IMG/VR virus record: IMGVR_UViG_3300046529_000616 | Coordinates: 3,216 to 67,215 of that record | Strand: one strand, 5' to 3' | DNA length: 64,000 nucleotides | DNA from: a virus | Lineage: Duplodnaviria > Caudoviricetes | In this document: positions 4,364 to 63,595 of the stretch, in pieces | How positions within the stretch are numbered: the first letter of the stretch is position 1 | Layout of the letters: each line of letters begins with the position of its first letter | Made by a program: the position numbers and the translations under genes | Notes under the pieces: model-generated | Seen by the model: the letters and a program-made list of their open reading frames with translations, nothing else | What the model was told of the DNA's origin: nothing | The model's database searches: none

Positions 4364-5734
4364 TTGCCCACCGCTGCTGCGCTAGTACAGACGGGAATCG
4401 AGTTTCAGAGTCAAGGAGATCTTGAGGCTGCTCGGCTTCATTATCTCGCAGCTCTGAAACTGGATTCGAACTGTGTCCAAGCCATCGCGAACCTGTGCGT
4501 CGTGTTGGCCGAGACTAACCGACTTGAAGGTGCAGCAGCATTAGCCTGGAAGCTCGTCGACCTGGTTCCTTTCAATGGAAACTTCTGGGAACTGTTGGGG
4601 AACTTTCTAACAAGGCTGGAGCGGTTGGACCTGGCCGAATATGCCTTCGATCAGGCGATAGGACTGAGTCCAGAGTCTCCGAGCATCCACCATAATCTGG
4701 CGTTGTGTCTGTTGAGGCAGAGAAAATATCAACAGTCGATCGCAGCGTTCGAGCGCGCAGAGAAGCTCGGATCAAGGGGTCACGGAATCAAGAACGACAA
4801 AGCCCATGCCTTTATGGCCCTGGGAAACCTGAAACAAGGTTGGGAATTGTATGAGTCCCGGTGGGATACCTTGGTTCACCTTCCACCGTGGGATTATCAC
4901 ATTCCCGAGTGGAAGGGAGAAAATCTGACAGCAACCCGAATCCTTATTCATGGCGAACAAGGTCTTGGCGACACGATCATGTGTTCAAGATTCTTTCGTG
5001 ACCTCGCCGACTGGGATTGGGCAGATGTGACTCTGGGAGTTCCCAGAACCCTTCAGAACTTGTTTTCTGCCCAGGATTGGAACCTGAACATCTTGCCGAT
5101 TGAGGACATGAACGAAGAAAACATGAAGGGCTTTGATTATCAGAGTCCAATGTATTCGGCAATGAGATATTTGGAAATTGACTCGCCAAAGGACGTTTCA
5201 TCAAAGGCTTATTTGAAGGTCCCGGAACCGAGAAAGTTCGAGTCTGATTTTAACATCGGACTCTGTTGGGCTTCTGGCCGCCGTGGAACCGAGATGGACG
5301 CTCGGCGAAGAGAAGCTGACTTGAAGCTGTTTCTCCCCCTGATCGAGAATCCGAAATTCAAAATCTGGTCACTTCAGAAAGGGACCAACGAAGAAGACAT
5401 TTCAAACCTGGGTCTTGAAGGTCTTGTTTCCGACGAAACCGGAATGTTCTCAGATTTCTACGAAACGGCGAAATTCATTTCAGGCTTGGATCTGGTTTTG
5501 ACAGTTGACACTGCGGTCGCCCATCTCTCGGGGGCGCTGGGCATACCGACTTTCATGCTAGCCCAATTCTCCAACTGCTGGAGATGGTGGAACATTGAGA
5601 ATGGATCGGGCGAGCCCTGGTACTCGGGAATGAGAATCTTCAGACAATCAGTTCCGGGCGATTGGAAAGGCCCAGTCACAGCGGCAATTAACCAGATCAA
5701 TCTGGGTCTGGTCCAGAGGAAGATTGCAGCGTGA
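4364..5734 (+). CDS. TPR-repeat glycosyltransferase (GT-B, GT9/heptosyltransferase-like C-terminus)
   Basis: N-terminal TPR helices; EQGLGDTI and LDLVLTVDTAVAHLSGALG motifs; CWRW near the C-terminus. TTG start with GGAG RBS. Confidence 0.85.
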   Translation: MPTAAALVQTGIEFQSQGDLEAARLHYLAALKLDSNCVQAIANLCVVLAETNRLEGAAALAWKLVDLVPFNGNFWELLGNFLTRLERLDLAEYAFDQAIGLSPESPSIHHNLALCLLRQRKYQQSIAAFERAEKLGSRGHGIKNDKAHAFMALGNLKQGWELYESRWDTLVHLPPWDYHIPEWKGENLTATRILIHGEQGLGDTIMCSRFFRDLADWDWADVTLGVPRTLQNLFSAQDWNLNILPIEDMNEENMKGFDYQSPMYSAMRYLEIDSPKDVSSKAYLKVPEPRKFESDFNIGLCWASGRRGTEMDARRREADLKLFLPLIENPKFKIWSLQKGTNEEDISNLGLEGLVSDETGMFSDFYETAKFISGLDLVLTVDTAVAHLSGALGIPTFMLAQFSNCWRWWNIENGSGEPWYSGMRIFRQSVPGDWKGPVTAAINQINLGLVQRKIAA

Positions 5735-6387
5735 TTTATACCATTTACCACCAAGCGCGCCCGCACGAGTCCACAGACGCTTGTCAGGCTATCTTTGTCG
5801 GCCGGCCAATCGGAAACAACATCGCGCATCTTGAAACCTTAGCTGAGATGCGGGCACACTTCTGGATCTGGAAGAACAAAAATCCTATGTTCTGGGTCGG
5901 CTTCCAGCATTATCGGAGATACTTGGACCTGAGAAACACTGACTCCAGGGCGAAGATTGAAGTCACAGAGCCCCAACCGCAGGAAGAAATTCCCGCTTGG
6001 GTTGAGGACTTCGACGTGATCGTCCCCAGGGCTTGGCAAATGAATCGGAATCTGACGGTCGGGGAACAATTCTGCGAGGCTCATGGAAACGAAGCCTGGA
6101 ACCAGATGTTGGCGCTTGTTCCTGACTTTGAAAGATATTCCAAACGAAACTCCTATCATGTTTGTAACATCTTTCTGACTCGGTGGGAGATTTTCGCCCG
6201 GTATATGGAATTTTGGTGGGATCTTTCCCAGAGCCTCCTGAGAACAGTTTCTGTGCCTGAGAACTCCTACCAACATCGGATTCTGGGCTTTCTGTCCGAA
6301 CGAATCTGGAGCTTCTGGTTAGATCGAGAACAAGAACGAACCGGAATCAAAATTTTCGAGGTCCCGCTGATGTTGGTGACTCCATGA
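5731..6387 (+). CDS. DUF4422-like putative glycosyltransferase
   Basis: VGFQHYRRYL, CNIF and GFLSERIW motifs characteristic of DUF4422. Confidence 0.7.
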   Translation: MIYTIYHQARPHESTDACQAIFVGRPIGNNIAHLETLAEMRAHFWIWKNKNPMFWVGFQHYRRYLDLRNTDSRAKIEVTEPQPQEEIPAWVEDFDVIVPRAWQMNRNLTVGEQFCEAHGNEAWNQMLALVPDFERYSKRNSYHVCNIFLTRWEIFARYMEFWWDLSQSLLRTVSVPENSYQHRILGFLSERIWSFWLDREQERTGIKIFEVPLMLVTP

Positions 6388-7079
6388 AGATCTCCCTTCC
6401 AGATGTGACGGTTGTGGTCATTGACACGGTTTGTCACAGCTTGGCCCTCGAAGCAATCAAGGACACAGTTCGTGAGATCGAGCCGGCGGAGATTCTGGTT
6501 TGGAGCGATCGGAAACAGTTTCCCTTCTGTGATGTGATTCCCACAGGGGCGAAATCTTTCGAAGAAGTTGGAAAAATCCTCTGGTACGATGTGCCGAAAA
6601 CAGTCAAGACCAGTCATTTCCTCGTCGTTCAATGGGACGGTTGGGTACTTGACGCAGGGAATTGGAACCCGAATTGGCTGGATCGAGATTACATCGGCGC
6701 TCCGTGGTGGCATCGGGACGGGCTCAACGTCGGAAACGGTGGATTTAGCCTTCGATCAACCGACTTGGCGAAATTCATTGCTAAGAACCAACAAATTTTT
6801 CCACTGGCGAACCCCGAAGACGTGGCGATTTGCCGGCACTATCGAAAGACCCTGGAACTCTTGGGCTTTAGCTTCGGCTTAGAGTCAGAAGCAAGAAAAT
6901 TCTCTTTCGAACGAACCGAACGGGTTTCAAGTTTCGGGTTTCATGGGATTTTCAACTGGGGAAAAGTCCTCTCCCCGGACAAACTTCTCTCCCGACTCGA
7001 ACTGGTGAACGACTATGTTCGTTCCAGGCCCGAGTGGGCGGAGTTCTGGACTCAGGCAAGGACTCTTATCAGTGCATGA
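6384..7079 (+). CDS. DUF5672-like putative glycosyltransferase
   Basis: LVVQWDGWV, DYIGAPW, VGNGGFSLRS and EDVAIC motifs. Confidence 0.75.
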   Translation: MKISLPDVTVVVIDTVCHSLALEAIKDTVREIEPAEILVWSDRKQFPFCDVIPTGAKSFEEVGKILWYDVPKTVKTSHFLVVQWDGWVLDAGNWNPNWLDRDYIGAPWWHRDGLNVGNGGFSLRSTDLAKFIAKNQQIFPLANPEDVAICRHYRKTLELLGFSFGLESEARKFSFERTERVSSFGFHGIFNWGKVLSPDKLLSRLELVNDYVRSRPEWAEFWTQARTLISA

Positions 7080-7644
7080 TACAGCCAGAGAGACGGGGAA
7101 GGCATTCTTCGAAACCTATGGGCCGGGGAAGAAGTCTGTCCTCGACGTGGGCTCGTTCGATGTCAATGGAACGTTAAAAGATTATGTTCCTGACGATATG
7201 AACTACTGCGGAACTGACATTTCTTCCGGCCCGAACGTGAACGTGGTTCTTGACGATCCGCATCGGTTTCCATTTGTTTGTGAGGAATTTGACCTCATCG
7301 TTTCGACTTCCTGTTTCGAACACGACGATATGTTTTGGCTCACCTTTTCCGAAATGTGTCGGATCGTAGCGCCCGGAGGATTTATTTACATTTCAGCTCC
7401 TGTTGCAGGAGCAGTCCATAATCATCCTATCGACGCCTGGAGGTTCTATCCCGACGCAGGGATAGCTCTCGCCCGTTGGGGTGAGAGAAATCTGGAGCCA
7501 ATTTCACTCATTGAGTCGTTTATTCGTCCACCTGGCTCAGAAGGCTGGTCGGACTTCGTTGCGGTTTTTGCCAAAAGACCGTTCGGAAGGCCAGTGAATC
7601 TTTTAGTTAGTCAGTTTCCAAACGCAATGCACGTAAGGACTTGA
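7072..7644 (+). CDS. Class I SAM-dependent methyltransferase
   Basis: GTG start (VHDTA...); VLDVGSFDVNG motif I, FDLIVSTSCFEH, and HNHPIDAWRFYPD. Confidence 0.85.
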   Translation: MHDTARETGKAFFETYGPGKKSVLDVGSFDVNGTLKDYVPDDMNYCGTDISSGPNVNVVLDDPHRFPFVCEEFDLIVSTSCFEHDDMFWLTFSEMCRIVAPGGFIYISAPVAGAVHNHPIDAWRFYPDAGIALARWGERNLEPISLIESFIRPPGSEGWSDFVAVFAKRPFGRPVNLLVSQFPNAMHVRT

Positions 7645-7673
7645 ATCGAGCCTAACCTTCAACAAAGGAGAGT

Positions 7674-7907
7674 ATGATGGCGACGGTAACGAAAGTGACT
7701 TCGGGAAGCACCACGACCTACACTGTCACAGACGCCCAGGGCAACGCGGCGACCTTGGCGGTTCTGGTCAATCCCGTGACCGGGAACGTGATTACTTACG
7801 GCGGTGCAGCCGTCCACAATGACGCGACGGCGATGATCAGTCAGCTATTGCTTCAGTTGCGAACGGGACTCCTGCCCGGCGCCGGCGCCCAGAATCTTCA
7901 GCCTTAG
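7674..7907 (+). CDS. Hypothetical protein
   Basis: Strong RBS AAGGAGAG; 77 aa. Confidence 0.65.
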   Translation: MMATVTKVTSGSTTTYTVTDAQGNAATLAVLVNPVTGNVITYGGAAVHNDATAMISQLLLQLRTGLLPGAGAQNLQP

Positions 7908-7945
7908 GGCGAACCAGCCAACTCGGAGAGAAAAGGGGGCCAAGA

Positions 7946-8110
7946 ATGATTATCGAGATCCTTTTTGTCGTGACCATGTTCCTCTGGTTCTTGGCCCTTC
8001 TGCCTTTCCAGCCGGTTGAACCCTACCGGCCCTATGCGACTACCTGGCTCGCGTTCGTGGCGATCCTGTTGCTGGGAGTCCATGTTTTCGCCGGATACCT
8101 GGTGAGATAA
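7946..8110 (+). CDS. Small two-TM membrane protein (54 aa, below the ORF-track cutoff)
   Basis: MIIEILFVVTMFLWFLALLPFQPVEPYRPYATTWLAFVAILLLGVHVFAGYLVR*; purine-rich RBS upstream. Confidence 0.65.
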   Translation: MIIEILFVVTMFLWFLALLPFQPVEPYRPYATTWLAFVAILLLGVHVFAGYLVR

Positions 8111-8149
8111 GGTTTCGGTCGTTGAAATTTGCGCTTCAGATACGCAGCG

Positions 8150-8388
8150 GTCTAGTGGGCCAAGTTTGCCGACTGAAAGAGGCGGCGGGCTGCGGCGATT
8201 TTTCGCCGGCTCAGGGACTCGATTGCGTTGACGGAACGGCCAGCCCGAGGTGGCGCGACTGGGCACGTGACGTAATCGCTTACGTGTCGGCCGAGGCTGC
8301 CCACCGACTCTGTCGACGGGTGCCGCTGGTGACAGCATACAGCCTAGCTGACTGGAGCCTTTCGCGGACTGGGTGGCCCAGACTAGAC
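8150..8388 (+). ncRNA. Candidate structured RNA (leader or ncRNA) upstream of the head protease gene
   Basis: Nested helices read by eye: 8150-8162/8374-8388 (13 bp, 2-nt bulge), 8194-8198/8203-8207, 8208-8212/8355-8359, 8220-8229/8269-8278, 8295-8299/8340-8344, and GCTG-GTGA-CAGC GNRA hairpin 8325-8336. Confidence 0.5.
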
Positions 8389-8426
8389 TCAAAGTCTTTT
8401 TTGGGCCAACACCCAGAATTTGTACC

Positions 8427-10637
8427 TTGAACAAAATTGGTCAAGACGCCGCTCGGTATGTTTCAAGATCTTCGACGTCGGAACATTGTTCGCTTTGTTC
8501 TATGTTTCGAGGTCCAAGCTCTTGCACCCTCGTTCAGGGGATTACTTCGCCGAACGGTTGGTGTCGATACTTCGATCGAAAACCTCTTGGGAAGGTAAGC
8601 GAAATGCCGGATGATTTCAAACTCTTCCTTCCGATTTCGAAGGTTGAGAAGCAGAACGACGGGTCGGTGACGATTTCGGGCTATGCGTCAACGCCGGCGT
8701 TGGATCTCGATGGCGAAATTGTCAGCCTTGATGCTGTCAAAAAAGCCCTTCCGGGTTATATGGCTTGGCGGAACATTCGCGAAATGCACCAGCCGCGAGC
8801 GGTCGGAGTCGCGAAAGAAGCCAACGTCGACGAAAAGGGACTGTTCCTTACTTCCAAGATCGTCGACAAGGCCGCGGTGGAGAAGGTTCTCGAAGGCGTT
8901 TACAAGGGCTATTCGATCGGTGGGCGGAAGCTCGCCAAAACCGGGAACACGATTACCGAGATCGACCTGGTCGAGATTTCGATTGTCGACCGGCCAGCGA
9001 ACCCGGAATGTCCGTTTTCAATTGCCAAGTCGGCGAAAGCCTTTACCGACTCGACTGTTGGTTATCTCGTCAAGACCGCTTCTCCGCCCCGGGACCCCAA
9101 AGCGCGTGCTCTCGGCCAGATGGCGAAAGCAGTTCGGACTCTCGCGAAGGCCCCACCGGCGGCTCACGATGGACTGTCACTTCCTGCTCCGATGAAATGC
9201 GCTGCACATGGGCTTCTCGACTGCAAGAAGTGCATGAAAGCCGCGAAGAAGGCGGAAAAAATCAAGAAACGTGAGGTTTCGGAACAGGAACGTTCTCGAC
9301 TCGCTGGGACTGGGGCTGCCCTTCCCGACGGTTCCTTTCCGATTGCCAACCGGTCTGATCTTGCCAATGCCCGGCAAGCTGTGGGTCGGGCGAAAGACCC
9401 TTCCAAGGCTCGGGCGCATATCAAAGCGCGGGCGGAAGCTCTCGGAGTCACACTTCCCGACAACTGGAAAAAGAAAGAAGCTTCGGCGTTGATCCAGTCC
9501 GCCGAAGACTCGCTTCTGAAACTTGACCCAAGTCCTGCGTCCGAGCTGTCCTTTCTGACCCTGGACGCCGGAGAGAAGCCTCGCCGCGATGGGGCTTCTT
9601 TGGGTAAGCGTCGATCTGGCCATGAGTCGATGCTTGAGGTCGACCTCGACCTTCAGAAAGGCGGCAATGGCGCGGACGAGGATTTTTTGGACTTGAAATT
9701 TGTGCAACCTTCTGAGGACAGAACGATGACAGTACAGGGTGACGCGTTGACGAAGTGGCTGATCGAGAACGGGATGGCGGATGTCGTCCAGAAGGCTCGG
9801 CAGGGTTCTCCGATGACTCGGGCGGCTCGCATGGCCGACGCCAGGGGGAACTTGAAGAAGGTCAAGAAGGCTCGCGGTGGCGCGGCTGCGGCGATCGAGG
9901 ACGCCCACAAGGTCTTGAAGGCGGCCTACTTGTCGAAACAAGCTCTCATCAAGGCCGGCAAGAAGCCGCCGATGGATGACGACGGCGACTTCGACATGGG
10001 CAAGGTCATGGGATCGCTTCAGAAAGCCTTCGGCGAGCTGACGACCATGAAGACCTTCATCAAGGCTGCCGATGGTCAGCTGAAGAAGGCTGCTTCTCGC
10101 GCCGGCCAGCGGGGCCAGGAAACCACCGACGGGAACGAGTTCTACCAGGTTCCTGCGGGAGTGAAGGATCTGAATCAGAGCGATCTTACGTCTGCCGGTC
10201 CGGGTTCGGGGCGTGGTTCGGAACCTCCGATGTATCCGGTCGACGGTGGCGTCTATCCCGGCAAGTCGGCAAAGAGCAAAGGCATGATTTCGGTCGACCA
10301 CGCTGAAGCGATCGCCAAGGCTGCTGCTGCCGAAGCCAAGGTCGAATTGCTGGAACGGGCGCCGATTGGTCCTTCCGGTCGCCGGCCCTATTCGTTCGAT
10401 GTGACGAAAGCCTTCTCCGGCAACGGAAAGAATGCTGCGTCAAACAACGAGGCGACGAAAACGCTGTTCGACGGCGTCGATCCTGCTGCCTTGATGTCCG
10501 GCGACGAGCACGCCCACACGGCTGCAACCGCGCGGGTGATCGGCAACATGCTGACTCATCCTTCCACCTTCGGCAAGAGCGTGCTGTTCGACCCCAACTT
10601 CAAGGGAGGGGCCGGCTTCAAGGCACAAAATTCCTAA
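8427..10637 (+). CDS. Prohead protease (HK97-type) / scaffold polyprotein with an in-frame N-terminal HiPIP-like domain
   Basis: One open frame from GTG 8373/TTG 8427; ATG with RBS at 8604 begins the protease domain (ISGYAS...DGEIV, NIREMH, YKGYSIGG, EISIVDRPANP); helical K/A-rich scaffold-like C-terminus; lies directly before the MCP. The start is uncertain. Confidence 0.8.
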   Translation: MNKIGQDAARYVSRSSTSEHCSLCSMFRGPSSCTLVQGITSPNGWCRYFDRKPLGKVSEMPDDFKLFLPISKVEKQNDGSVTISGYASTPALDLDGEIVSLDAVKKALPGYMAWRNIREMHQPRAVGVAKEANVDEKGLFLTSKIVDKAAVEKVLEGVYKGYSIGGRKLAKTGNTITEIDLVEISIVDRPANPECPFSIAKSAKAFTDSTVGYLVKTASPPRDPKARALGQMAKAVRTLAKAPPAAHDGLSLPAPMKCAAHGLLDCKKCMKAAKKAEKIKKREVSEQERSRLAGTGAALPDGSFPIANRSDLANARQAVGRAKDPSKARAHIKARAEALGVTLPDNWKKKEASALIQSAEDSLLKLDPSPASELSFLTLDAGEKPRRDGASLGKRRSGHESMLEVDLDLQKGGNGADEDFLDLKFVQPSEDRTMTVQGDALTKWLIENGMADVVQKARQGSPMTRAARMADARGNLKKVKKARGGAAAAIEDAHKVLKAAYLSKQALIKAGKKPPMDDDGDFDMGKVMGSLQKAFGELTTMKTFIKAADGQLKKAASRAGQRGQETTDGNEFYQVPAGVKDLNQSDLTSAGPGSGRGSEPPMYPVDGGVYPGKSAKSKGMISVDHAEAIAKAAAAEAKVELLERAPIGPSGRRPYSFDVTKAFSGNGKNAASNNEATKTLFDGVDPAALMSGDEHAHTAATARVIGNMLTHPSTFGKSVLFDPNFKGGAGFKAQNS

Positions 10638-51212: not shown

Positions 51213-51473
51213 TCAGATGCTCCACTCTGGCGCTTTGATAACGACCAGTCCTGTTGGATCATCGAGGAGTCCGAGGCCGATTAGTCTATCACCACAAATG
51301 GAATTGAAATCTTGTTGAAGGATTATTGTCGGTTCGAGTTCGGAGACCCAATGCTGGAGCATTTGGTAGATCATAAACTCTCGCCGAAGATTTATCGACC
51401 GAGCGAGACGATTGGTATGCTGACTCAGGAGGTCTGAGTCTACCATTGGTGGAAGGGGTTTAAGACTGAACAT
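51213..51473 (-). CDS. Hypothetical protein
   Basis: AAGGA RBS; 86 aa. Confidence 0.55.
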   Translation of the reverse strand: MFSLKPLPPMVDSDLLSQHTNRLARSINLRREFMIYQMLQHWVSELEPTIILQQDFNSICGDRLIGLGLLDDPTGLVVIKAPEWSI

Positions 51474-51480
51474 AAGAGTC

Positions 51481-51774
51481 TTATCCCAGTTCGATGTCGA
51501 TGGCGTTGGAATATTCGAGTCGGAGTTCTAGGCCGATCGCCGCGAGGGATTGGGAATAGGCGTCGACTTTTGCTTCGACGCGGGTCTTGGCTCGTTCGAT
51601 GATGGAGGGGTCGATGGAAAGCAGCTGGTCGATGTGGATTTCTAGGGCTGAGTCCTTGGGAAGCGGGAGTGGCGGGTCGAGCTTGGATAATTTATCCTCG
51701 ATGATTGCGGTCGCTAACGCCCGAGCTTCGCGGGAGATTAGGTCTTCGAGACTTGCTTTTTTGGTATTGGCCAT
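51481..51774 (-). CDS. Early hypothetical protein ending in the AIDIELG tag
   Basis: 97 aa; C-terminus SNAIDIELG*. Confidence 0.65.
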   Translation of the reverse strand: MANTKKASLEDLISREARALATAIIEDKLSKLDPPLPLPKDSALEIHIDQLLSIDPSIIERAKTRVEAKVDAYSQSLAAIGLELRLEYSNAIDIELG

Positions 51775-61789: not shown

Positions 61790-62407
61790 ATGCTACCAAA
61801 ACGCGGAAGGCCGGGGGCGGCCATTTTGATGACTGTGGAAAGAGAATTAGTAGCGAGCGATATTTTCCGACTCGCAATGGGTCAAGGACCAAACGGAGAC
61901 CCCGCGCCCCGGAAGGCGCCCCCGATGCTTCAGCGACTCAAGGCCAGTCACCACACCGCGGCCCGACTTCTCGCTGCGGGGCTCACGGTCAAGGAAGTTG
62001 CGGCGCGAGTAGGCAGAACCCCCCAACGAATTGGCGACATGGAACGGACTGATCCGGCGTTTCAGAACCTAATCGGTTACTACCGGGCGATGATTACCGA
62101 GACCGAAGTTGAAGACGCTCGCGAAATGCAAGGCATGTTCCGCGGTATCGGACTCGACGCGCTGGATGAAATCCGAGAGAGACTCGACGATCCGGTGAAA
62201 CGAGCTGAAATTCCGATTGGCGAACTTCGCCAGCTCGCTTCAACAGCCGCCGACCGTACCGACGCACCGAACAAAGTAGCGCAACAGGGAATTGTTACCC
62301 CGGCAAAGATCACCATCAAGCTCGGACCTAGAGATCTTCGTCCGAAAGAACCTGATCTTAAACTTATCGACCAGGAGGGAAACCAATTGGTTGAAACCGA
62401 GGAGTAA
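61790..62407 (+). CDS. HTH protein, probable terminase small subunit
   Basis: AAGGTGA RBS; HTH LAAGLTVKEVAARVGRTPQRI, then helical core; upstream of TerL. Confidence 0.55.
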   Translation: MLPKRGRPGAAILMTVERELVASDIFRLAMGQGPNGDPAPRKAPPMLQRLKASHHTAARLLAAGLTVKEVAARVGRTPQRIGDMERTDPAFQNLIGYYRAMITETEVEDAREMQGMFRGIGLDALDEIRERLDDPVKRAEIPIGELRQLASTAADRTDAPNKVAQQGIVTPAKITIKLGPRDLRPKEPDLKLIDQEGNQLVETEE

Positions 62408-62633
62408 GTGTCGTGTTTACGAAAACTGTGACTTCGAACCGGATGGCATTTCGCCGCCCGTTGGTCTGGACCACTCCCGAGCCCCCAGCGGCCCAAAATG
62501 TCTGGTCGGTAGTGCGGTTGGAGCGGAAGTCGGTAGTTACCACTTCCAACCAGAACCACTCCCGCGAGACCGTCTCCCAAGCAGGGACAGACAAAGCCTC
62601 TGTCCCTGTTTATGGCACCTTGAGGCTGGCAGC

Positions 62634-63095
62634 ATGATTCTCGCAGCTAACCGGACTACAAGCCGCAACCTCCCCAAACCTAAGACTGCTGTTGCTCGAT
62701 CCGGACTCAGCTTTGAGAAGAATTTGTTTGAGTCGATCTCGAAGTCCGCGCCTGCGAAGGTTTCCGTCGAACGAAACCCATGGTTCGTTTATCGCGACTC
62801 CAGAAGCTCCGATGCACTCCAATGCCAACTGGACATTCTGATCCACGACCATGAGTTTGAGTTCTATGTCGTTGTAGAAGTTAAAAGAACCTGGACTCCC
62901 CTCGCAATGCAGAAGCTGAAAACAGTTTATTGTCCGGTAGTGGCTCGCGCCCTCGGCGAGCCAGCGAAACCGCTGGTAATTTGTCAGAACCTGACTCCAT
63001 CTTCCCCCATGCCAAAGTCAACAGTTCCGTTTGCACTTTTGTCCGACGAGCCCCTCATGCAATGGTTGGGAAGAGGAAGCATAAGATGGGAATAG
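62634..63095 (+). CDS. PD-(D/E)xK nuclease-like protein
   Basis: CQLDILI...VVEVKRT motif. Confidence 0.6.
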   Translation: MILAANRTTSRNLPKPKTAVARSGLSFEKNLFESISKSAPAKVSVERNPWFVYRDSRSSDALQCQLDILIHDHEFEFYVVVEVKRTWTPLAMQKLKTVYCPVVARALGEPAKPLVICQNLTPSSPMPKSTVPFALLSDEPLMQWLGRGSIRWE

Positions 63096-63595
63096 GGACG
63101 AAGCTTCCGAGTCCAATCATCAACTCCTGGCTCGAATGGGCAGGAGCCAGACTCATCGCGCTCCCAGGCCATAGGACCGGCCCTGCGGACATCCGAGTAA
63201 TCTGGCCCGAATACGATCAGGAGAAGTTCCAAGTCCTAGAATTTAGACGCGGCCTTGTTGCTCGGTCTCTCGGACCCACCAATGCCGAAATGCCCTTTGT
63301 AGAAGAAATCCTCAGACTGCCGAACCTTTGTTCCGACGTAAACGTTCGCCGAGTCCTACACAAACGGGCGCTGATTCATCCGACTCGGGGAACCCACATC
63401 TATCGTTGGGATAGAATAGCAAAAGATCTTGGTGACGTTAAGCTCTACACCGTCAAACGCTGGCACAAGATGGGCCTGATCGAGGTCGGAGAGAAGATAA
63501 ATCTCGACCTAACTAATAGACTTATGAATTTCTTTGATGAGCTGGGAGCAACTGGGTATGCCCAAATGCGGGCTTTAGAACTCTCCCGCCAATAA
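63086..63595 (+). CDS. Putative late transcription regulator (antiterminator/DUF6362-like)
   Basis: WLEWAGARLIALP...WPEY N-terminus and C-terminal HTH-like RWDRIAKDLG..LYTVKRWH. Confidence 0.45.
   Translation: MGIGTKLPSPIINSWLEWAGARLIALPGHRTGPADIRVIWPEYDQEKFQVLEFRRGLVARSLGPTNAEMPFVEEILRLPNLCSDVNVRRVLHKRALIHPTRGTHIYRWDRIAKDLGDVKLYTVKRWHKMGLIEVGEKINLDLTNRLMNFFDELGATGYAQMRALELSRQ

Follow-up and report, generated by a model that had tools for sequence, protein, structure and literature searches.

The nut sites of phage lambda and the put sites of HK022 act in cis, on the RNA of which they form part. A nut site has boxA a few nucleotides before the boxB hairpin, and put has two stem-loops just past a promoter, which make RNA polymerase resistant to terminators. 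Hammerhead, twister and HDV-like ribozymes cut late transcripts in other phages, and placement at variable intergenic positions of late operons is typical of such phage-borne ribozymes. For the tailed phages of soil bacteria, the RNA level is almost unstudied. A survey of the intergenic regions in IMG/VR predicted 10,006 candidate structured RNAs, some of which are catalogued as lying ahead of terminase and capsid genes (PMC10690425). The element described here lies upstream of the head maturation protease gene in a 64,000-nucleotide stretch of phage DNA, the whole of which we refer to as the window. The original prediction had placed a non-coding structured RNA at this site, and the homologs bear it out in that they keep the base pairs and not the reading frame. 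Covariation among them firmly supports the prediction of a new structured RNA family of about 200-260 nt that is uncurated in terms of Rfam 15.

Relatives of the protease were gathered from IMG/VR, JGI metagenomes and assemblies. The first relative to reveal the element was the metagenome contig L045, found through a weak nhmmer match; its protease is 61-66% identical to that of the window, and its copy carries the shared motifs on differing stems. The next matches were in L047, L054/L055 and L053. A two-motif pattern scan of IMG/VR led to phages of higher G+C content, namely L059, L064, L066/L069 and L068. The covariance model R1 matches the window at 8155-8323 with 135.8 bits (E ~1e-29) and scores L068, L053, L064, L054, L045, L059 and L066 at 86-102 bits. 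When 46 related viral records were searched with the model over the full length of their contigs, this added L088 (60 bits), L089 (35 bits) and a weak match in L090; a domain-2 pattern scan returned 18 loci with one further member, L101. The carriers amount to about ten independent uncultured soil phages.

Beyond these phages the searches returned little. Exact-motif scans of IMG/VR with the Hc region (Table 1) yielded nothing but the lineage of the window itself and chance matches in coding sequence. The two-motif pattern occurs at 12 loci in 185,579 species-representative genomes, all of them chance occurrences scoring 17 bits or less with the model, so that by this pattern the species representatives yielded no prophage copy. 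No cultured phage was matched by blastn. Comparison of the major capsid protein places Brevundimonas phages closest among the cultured relatives, at 38% identity, and Polewnik, the nearest cultured phage, has no match to the R1 model. Within the window, a 5′-domain-like hairpin at 51448-51585 (GACUGAAC...GAGUC) was picked up weakly (E 2.6) and was set aside as a probable chance match. DNA of the window is present in many soil and rhizosphere metagenomes; no RNA run is listed among the sequencing runs that carry it. Four DNA runs from soil and rhizosphere have contigs over 8000-8700; inside the element these show no variant and therefore add no covariation.

The window reads, on the + strand upstream of the element, through TPR/glycosyltransferase-like (GT9-like), DUF4422, DUF5672 and SAM-methyltransferase genes (4364-7644), with two small ORFs (7674-7907 and 7946-8110) between this cluster and the RNA. 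The cluster is kept in L048, L054 and L056, where it is located between the portal and protease genes, and it looks like a phage-borne glycan or modification module within the structural region. The portal proteins of L048 (2430-4826) and L056 (2813-6352) have an extra PF18823 (InPase) domain, the fusion in L056 reaching 1179 aa. The second small ORF, directly upstream of the RNA, encodes a strongly hydrophobic product of 54 aa that is 63% identical in L001, compared with about 97% for the neighboring proteins. Homologs of this ORF are found elsewhere in relatives (L056 19101-19241, L048 18253-18387) and at most 0.5-1 kb from the RNA in L068 and L088; the ORF may travel with the RNA.

Downstream of the element, the protease ORF is open from 8373, and the original prediction had proposed the GTG at this position as the start. 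However, the homology of the Cys-rich N-terminus with L045 begins at TTG 8427. This TTG, 10 nt past the terminal hairpin, is likely the start codon of the protease gene, and because the N-terminal homology begins there, we take the non-coding gap to be 8111-8426. The Cys4 module at 8427-8603 has the arrangement C-x2-C-x9-C-x13-C together with a GWC motif and is without a HiPIP match in Pfam. It is also kept in L045 (2276-2460); a ChaB-like N-terminal module replaces it in L053 and L054, and the proteases of L047 and L048 have neither of the two. A 551-aa protein that is also encoded downstream matches a PHROG family without known function and is probably the major head protein.

Table 1. Features of the RNA element and its immediate surroundings in the window
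Feature	Position	Strand	Sequence, pairing and basis
TTG-containing motif	8121..8137	+	GTTGAAATTTGCGCTTC; possible promoter element, by inference
Whole RNA element	8157..8416	+	runs from the 5′ domain through linker, 3′ domain and connector to the terminal hairpin; limits set by conservation in the family
5′ domain	8157..8212	+	three-way junction P1/P2/P3; covariation in all three helices
P1	8157-8161 with 8208-8212	+	GGGCC with GGCUC; covaries
P2	8163-8171 with 8183-8191	+	9 bp; changes on both sides in 9 of 9 pairs
Apical loop/tip of P2	8171..8183	+	GACUGAAnGAGGC; invariant alignment columns
P3	8194-8198 with 8203-8207	+	GGCGA with UCGCC; both-side changes in 5 of 5 pairs
Linker between the domains	8213..8242	+	length and sequence vary among members
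3′ domain	8243..8321	+	three-way junction Ha/Hb/Hc; helices 92-98% paired
Ha	8243-8247 with 8317-8321	+	GCCCG with CGGGU, then unpaired A8248; compensatory variants
Hb	8249-8254 with 8296-8301	+	GGUGGC with GCUGCC, then CAC 8302-8304; U-G/G-U tandem kept
Insert inside Hb	8255..8295	+	41 nt, lineage-specific; hairpin CACGUGA 8264-8270 / UUACGUG 8280-8286, loop CGUAAUCGC
Hc	8305-8308 with 8312-8315	+	CGAC, UCU, GUCG, then unpaired A8316; 3′ domain hairpin
Connector	8322..8368	+	recurrent CAGCA motif (8333-8337)
Terminal hairpin	8369..8416	+	outer stem CUGGGUG / CACCCAG; inner stem GGCCCAGA / UUUUGGGCC; RNAfold
Downstream gene	8427..10637	+	Cys4 'HiPIP-like' N-terminal module in-frame with S78 head maturation protease; Pfam and PHROG matches

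Comparison of the members establishes a predicted fold of two independent three-way-junction domains followed by a terminal hairpin (Table 1). This differs in several respects from the original drawing, which enclosed the whole structure in a 13-bp helix. The inverted repeat behind that helix is present in the window (8150-8162 / 8374-8388; 7 bp, a 2-nt bulge and 5 bp), but it is not conserved: in the IMG/VR phage L001, which is 97% identical, the 5′ arm carries T8153>C and G8155>A and the 3′ arm is unchanged, with the uncompensated loss of two pairs, and the distant members have no such helix. The window and L001 are strongly diverged up to about 8110 and almost identical from about 8156 onward; since their near-identity starts there, the 5′ arm belongs to the flank and is located outside the conserved element. 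The alternative AGAC/GTCT pairing that had been proposed depends on this non-conserved helix and has to be given up with it. The GGCTC/GAGCC pairing is replaced as well, as GGCUC (8208-8212) pairs throughout the family with GGGCC (8157-8161) to form P1. The 10-bp helix drawn at 8220-8229/8269-8278 is wrong or at best lineage-specific, and in place of a GGCTG/CAGCC three-way junction the covariation backs Ha/Hb/Hc (8243-8321). Other parts of the drawing survive. The hairpin GGCGA-TTTT-TCGCC (8194-8207) is P3, and both it and the hairpin at 8163-8191 that was implicit in the drawing are conserved and covary; the small hairpin CGAC-TCT-GTCG (8305-8315) is Hc; and AGACT-CAA-AGTCT with the T-run behind it (8385-8402) is found inside the terminal hairpin, where its RNA form, AGACU-CAA-AGUCU followed by U6, makes up the tip.

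The P2 tip GACUGAAnGAGGC varies only at its middle n (A, U or C), and it is carried on differing stems in L045, L053, L054, L059, L064, L066, L068 and L048. P3 retains a U-G pair in L001 after the change C8196>U. The core of the 3′ domain is almost invariant (CCCGAGGUGGC...GCYGCCCAC-hairpin-ACGGG), and its helix Ha is found as GCCCG/CGGGU, as GCGCG/CGUGC in L045, as GUCUG/CAGAC in L047 and as GCCUG/CAGGC in L048. The interior of Hb is a different stem with the same CGUAAUCGC loop in L047, and a tetraloop (L066 and L068) or short loop in L059, L066 and L068. Most members have nCAGCA 10-20 nt past Ha; the connector in which it lies (8322-8368 in the window) shows no consistent pairing across members. 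A strong hairpin closes the element in every member, with the outer stem UGGGUG...CA(A/G)CACCCA common to the window, L054 and L066 and with inner stems that differ.

The pairing was assessed in two alignments. The model-fitted alignment of 13 sequences has 90.5% of its cells paired, compared with 67.0 ± 1.7% after shuffling (none of 500 shuffles reaches 90.5%) and 37-49% when the pairs are slid, and it has changes on both sides in 27 of its 34 pairs. The sequence-only MAFFT alignment of 9 sequences has 85% paired, against 69% when shuffled and about 37-46% when slid, with both-side changes in 22 of 34 pairs. Seven helices covary across about ten lineages, which is the number of independent members known, with some of the alignments fitted to the model. 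Because many of the conserved pairs are G-U, which would be A-C on the other strand, the RNA is assigned to the + strand, and the conserved U-G/G-U tandem of Hb fits this assignment.

A protein-coding reading of the element was considered and is ruled out by the varying frames of the conserved motifs and by an indel in L001. The spacing of the two invariant motifs is 0, 1 or 2 modulo 3 among the members, so that no reading frame is conserved, and the 2-nt indel in L001 breaks the minus-strand ORF (7904-8434). Two of the six changes in L001 fall on third positions of the + frame, and neither this minus-strand ORF nor the one on the + strand (8122-8430) has a Pfam or PHROG match.

A further explanation is that a G+C-rich spacer folds by chance, or that the element works at the level of DNA, for instance as a packaging site, as an origin or as a miniature inverted-repeat transposon with the 13-bp inverted repeat at its ends. 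The folding energy leaves some room for this. Minimum-free-energy folding of 8150-8402 gives -111 kcal/mol compared with -101.1 ± 4.8 for shuffled sequences; with z = -2.05 and 7 of 200 shuffles folding as well, the energy by itself gives only modest support. The inverted repeat that flanks the element in the window and the different positions of the element in different genomes could also be read in favor of a DNA element. Against this, covariation is seen in seven helices over about ten lineages, many of the pairs being G-U; the inverted repeat has decayed in L001 and is missing from all other members; and a pattern scan finds no repeated copies within the window. We regard a chance or DNA-level origin as highly improbable, and as largely refuted, being effectively excluded by the covariation.

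No Rfam family matches the element, to which the original prediction could assign none by eye. A cmscan of window positions 7000-9600 against Rfam 15 at E ≤10 returned only a chance mir-379 match outside the element, and a scan of eight other members at E ≤5 returned nothing over the element; the classes covered by Rfam 15 include riboswitches, leaders, ribozymes, pRNA, 6S, SRP, RNase P and ROOL/GOLLD/HEARO, among others. Over the full length of the window, ARAGORN detected neither tRNA nor tmRNA genes. Likenesses to the cores of cobalamin, SAH, ZTP and T-box RNAs, to the SRL and GAC of rRNA and to K-turns or K-loops were discarded: no model matches, and the similar stretches fall in non-conserved inserts.

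The compactness of the junctions (about 55-80 nt), their highly conserved core nucleotides, and the scatter of the modules, alone or as neighbors, over differing intergenic sites in late operons are what one would expect if one or both junctions were small self-cleaving ribozymes, or RNase-processing signals, that cut the polycistronic late transcript. However, no Rfam ribozyme model matches even at E ≤10, including those for hammerhead, twister, twister-sister, hatchet, pistol and HDV-like ribozymes, and the conserved nucleotides are mostly located in helices and not in the junction strands. We therefore consider self-cleavage or processing to be quite improbable.

The disjunct distribution of the element bears on its function. 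One copy is present in the window and one in the 99%-complete genome G041, and every copy lies on the strand of the flanking late genes, with five or more different positions represented among the carriers. The element precedes the protease gene in the window and in L054, is located between the DUF5672 and methyltransferase genes in L045, in the tail-chaperone region of L047 and L089, directly upstream of terL in L059 and L066, past the head-tail genes in L053, and past a virion structural gene in L064 and L068; the copy in L088 is found among genes of the early-late junction, near homologs of window 61790-63595. At the tail-chaperone place, the window has a 176-nt gap without an R1 match. In L002 and L056, a 75-77-aa gene and the protease gene are separated by about 45-50 nt, and no RNA lies between the two. 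In G008, G015, G022 and G030, all of them complete or nearly complete genomes of relatives, the model detects no copy at E ≤0.01. The two domains also occur apart: L047 and L101 have the 3′ domain only, and L048 has a 5′-domain-only copy in its tail region and a 3′-domain-only copy past the portal-region genes. The core is higher in G+C than its flanks in 10 of 10 members (0.66 compared with 0.54 in the window). The varied positions, the absences and the separable domains therefore point to an accessory, movable RNA module and not to a switch dedicated to the head protease. The role first proposed for the RNA, as a switch for head genes or for a 'HiPIP isoform' of the protease, does not agree with the finding of the same RNA at terL, methyltransferase and tail genes and with its absence from several complete relatives.

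One feature of L047 was observed in passing. Upstream of the tape-measure region, the frame at 8990-9217 stays open for about 230 nt past the annotated stop of a 137-aa gene, perhaps as the frameshifted extension that is usual for tail chaperones. The 3′-domain copy of the RNA starts right after this open frame.

The sequences around the element offer some hints as to how the RNA is made. In 8 of 11 members TTGA stands ahead of P1, at a distance of 29-50 nt, compared with 16% expected in random windows, and the motif GTTGAAATTTGCGCTTC is unique within the window. A TTG motif (e.g., CACATTG or TTGCGC), about 30-47 nt ahead of P1, is also seen in the flanks of L045, L053, L054, L064, L066, L068 and L088. 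The upstream TTG motif may be a promoter element or part of an RNA leader. No convincing -10 box was found upstream of the element, and a scan for consensus promoters and terminators returned nothing at the element.

An alternative explanation, which we hold to be possible but tentative, is that the element works in cis on the late mRNA, as a leader or as an intercistronic regulator. The 3′ three-way junction, alone or together with the 5′ domain, would then be the binding site for a ligand, for RNA polymerase or for a protein of the phage. Binding would determine whether the terminal hairpin forms and hence either read-through, as in a riboswitch, an attenuator or put/nut-like antitermination, or translation of the next gene. 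The invariable agreement in strand with the flanking late genes is consistent with such a role, as is the short distance to the next gene: the next ORF is co-oriented in all members, and its start codon follows the hairpin after 0-25 nt, with the 3′ arm of the hairpin abutting the terL AUG in L066. The hairpins of the window and L045 have U-runs, the sequences of the junction are nearly invariant and in this look like an aptamer or a site bound by protein, and the P2 tip recalls the lambda boxB pentaloop hairpin. Strand exchange would also be permitted by the sequence past Ha, which is similar to the 5′ arm of the hairpin in four members (the window, L045, L054 and L066), though not in L064, L068 and L088. 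The post-Ha sequence CGGGUGC reads CGUGCG in L045, where it has changed along with the 5′ arm of the hairpin. This hints at a switch in which the pairing of the Ha 3′ strand and the terminal hairpin could be mutually exclusive.

However, the element is followed by unrelated genes (protease, methyltransferase, terL, tail genes), and it is absent from complete relatives whose late operon is the same, which implies that it is not needed for late expression. The Shine-Dalgarno sequence of the next gene is located outside the hairpin in L045, L064 and L048. Only some of the terminal hairpins have a U-tract, and because most have none, these hairpins may not terminate transcription. The occurrence of the two domains apart from each other and the failure of any Rfam riboswitch or leader model to match likewise speak against a cis-acting leader. 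The same applies to boxA: 9 of 10 members have no boxA-like sequence (CGCUCUUA-like, searched for as YGCTCTT from -120 to +150 nt), the single match being located after the copy in L068.

The explanation to which we give an even chance is that the element is a self-contained accessory RNA module residing in the late regions (packaging, head, tail) of a clade of uncultured tailed phages from soil and rhizosphere. Transcription would follow the late-gene strand, as part of the late transcript or from a promoter belonging to the element, and the terminal hairpin would define or protect the 3′ end of the RNA. Recognition by a partner is suggested because the P2 tip and the 3′ core are invariant; the invariant loop and junction nucleotides would bind this partner, which would most likely be a protein or the transcription or translation machinery. 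The element would then be a movable 'RNA moron' rather than a switch devoted to the head protease. We rank a discrete partner-binding RNA first, a cis-acting leader second, self-cleavage or processing third, and a chance or DNA-level element last. A bolder and rather unlikely proposal is that the two junction domains represent two new RNA classes, with the 3′ core a new aptamer for a ligand or protein, or a new small ribozyme, and the 5′ tip a new signal recruiting a protein or polymerase, which the phages would shuffle as cassettes. If this were the case, the cassettes would tune late-gene expression or counter a host system.

The family presents a new RNA fold that has a near-invariant core, moves among syntenic late operons and splits into domains that are used separately. 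This suggests a portable RNA function, for example in regulation, processing or host interference, of a type missed entirely by annotation pipelines. The R1 covariance model and the list of members make the family searchable, and the invariant tip and core provide targets for mutagenesis, probing and pull-downs. The comparison also corrected a fold that was plausible when drawn by hand, and it removed the link to a 'HiPIP isoform' of the protease.

Among known systems, a riboswitch with a three-way-junction aptamer and a terminator platform resembles the element in its conserved junction core, its covarying stems and the hairpin before a gene. However, the element has no consistent downstream gene, being followed by protease, methyltransferase, terL, tail and function-unassigned genes; its U-tract is inconsistent, its domains are separable, and no riboswitch in Rfam matches it. 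With lambda nut and HK022 put the element shares the character of a phage RNA made up of separate small folded modules. The P2 tip CU-GAAnG-AG bears a resemblance, as we take it, to the lambda boxB stem with its GAAAA or GAAGA pentaloop, in which the fourth base is variable, but the fifth base of the loop is G and not A, giving GAAnG in place of GAARA. Moreover, nut and put are located just downstream of early promoters and are essential to their operon, whereas the element occupies variable late positions and is dispensable, and neither a sequence nor a model match connects them. A miniature inverted-repeat transposon differs from the element, which has an inverted repeat in the window lineage only and a single copy per genome. 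RNA C and RNA D of phage T4 and the IMG/VR candidates are comparable in that they too are unannotated, conserved, folded RNAs from phage intergenic regions; the two T4 RNAs differ from the element, which has no tRNA genes nearby. Phage morons, which are accessory transcription units set between the late genes of phages that are syntenic in other respects, behave in a similar way. The element likewise separates genes that are neighbors in relatives, runs in the direction of the late genes and differs from its flanks in G+C content; some close relatives have it and others do not, and it is bounded by what may be a promoter motif and by a hairpin. The classical payload of a moron is a protein, whereas the payload here is a structured RNA.
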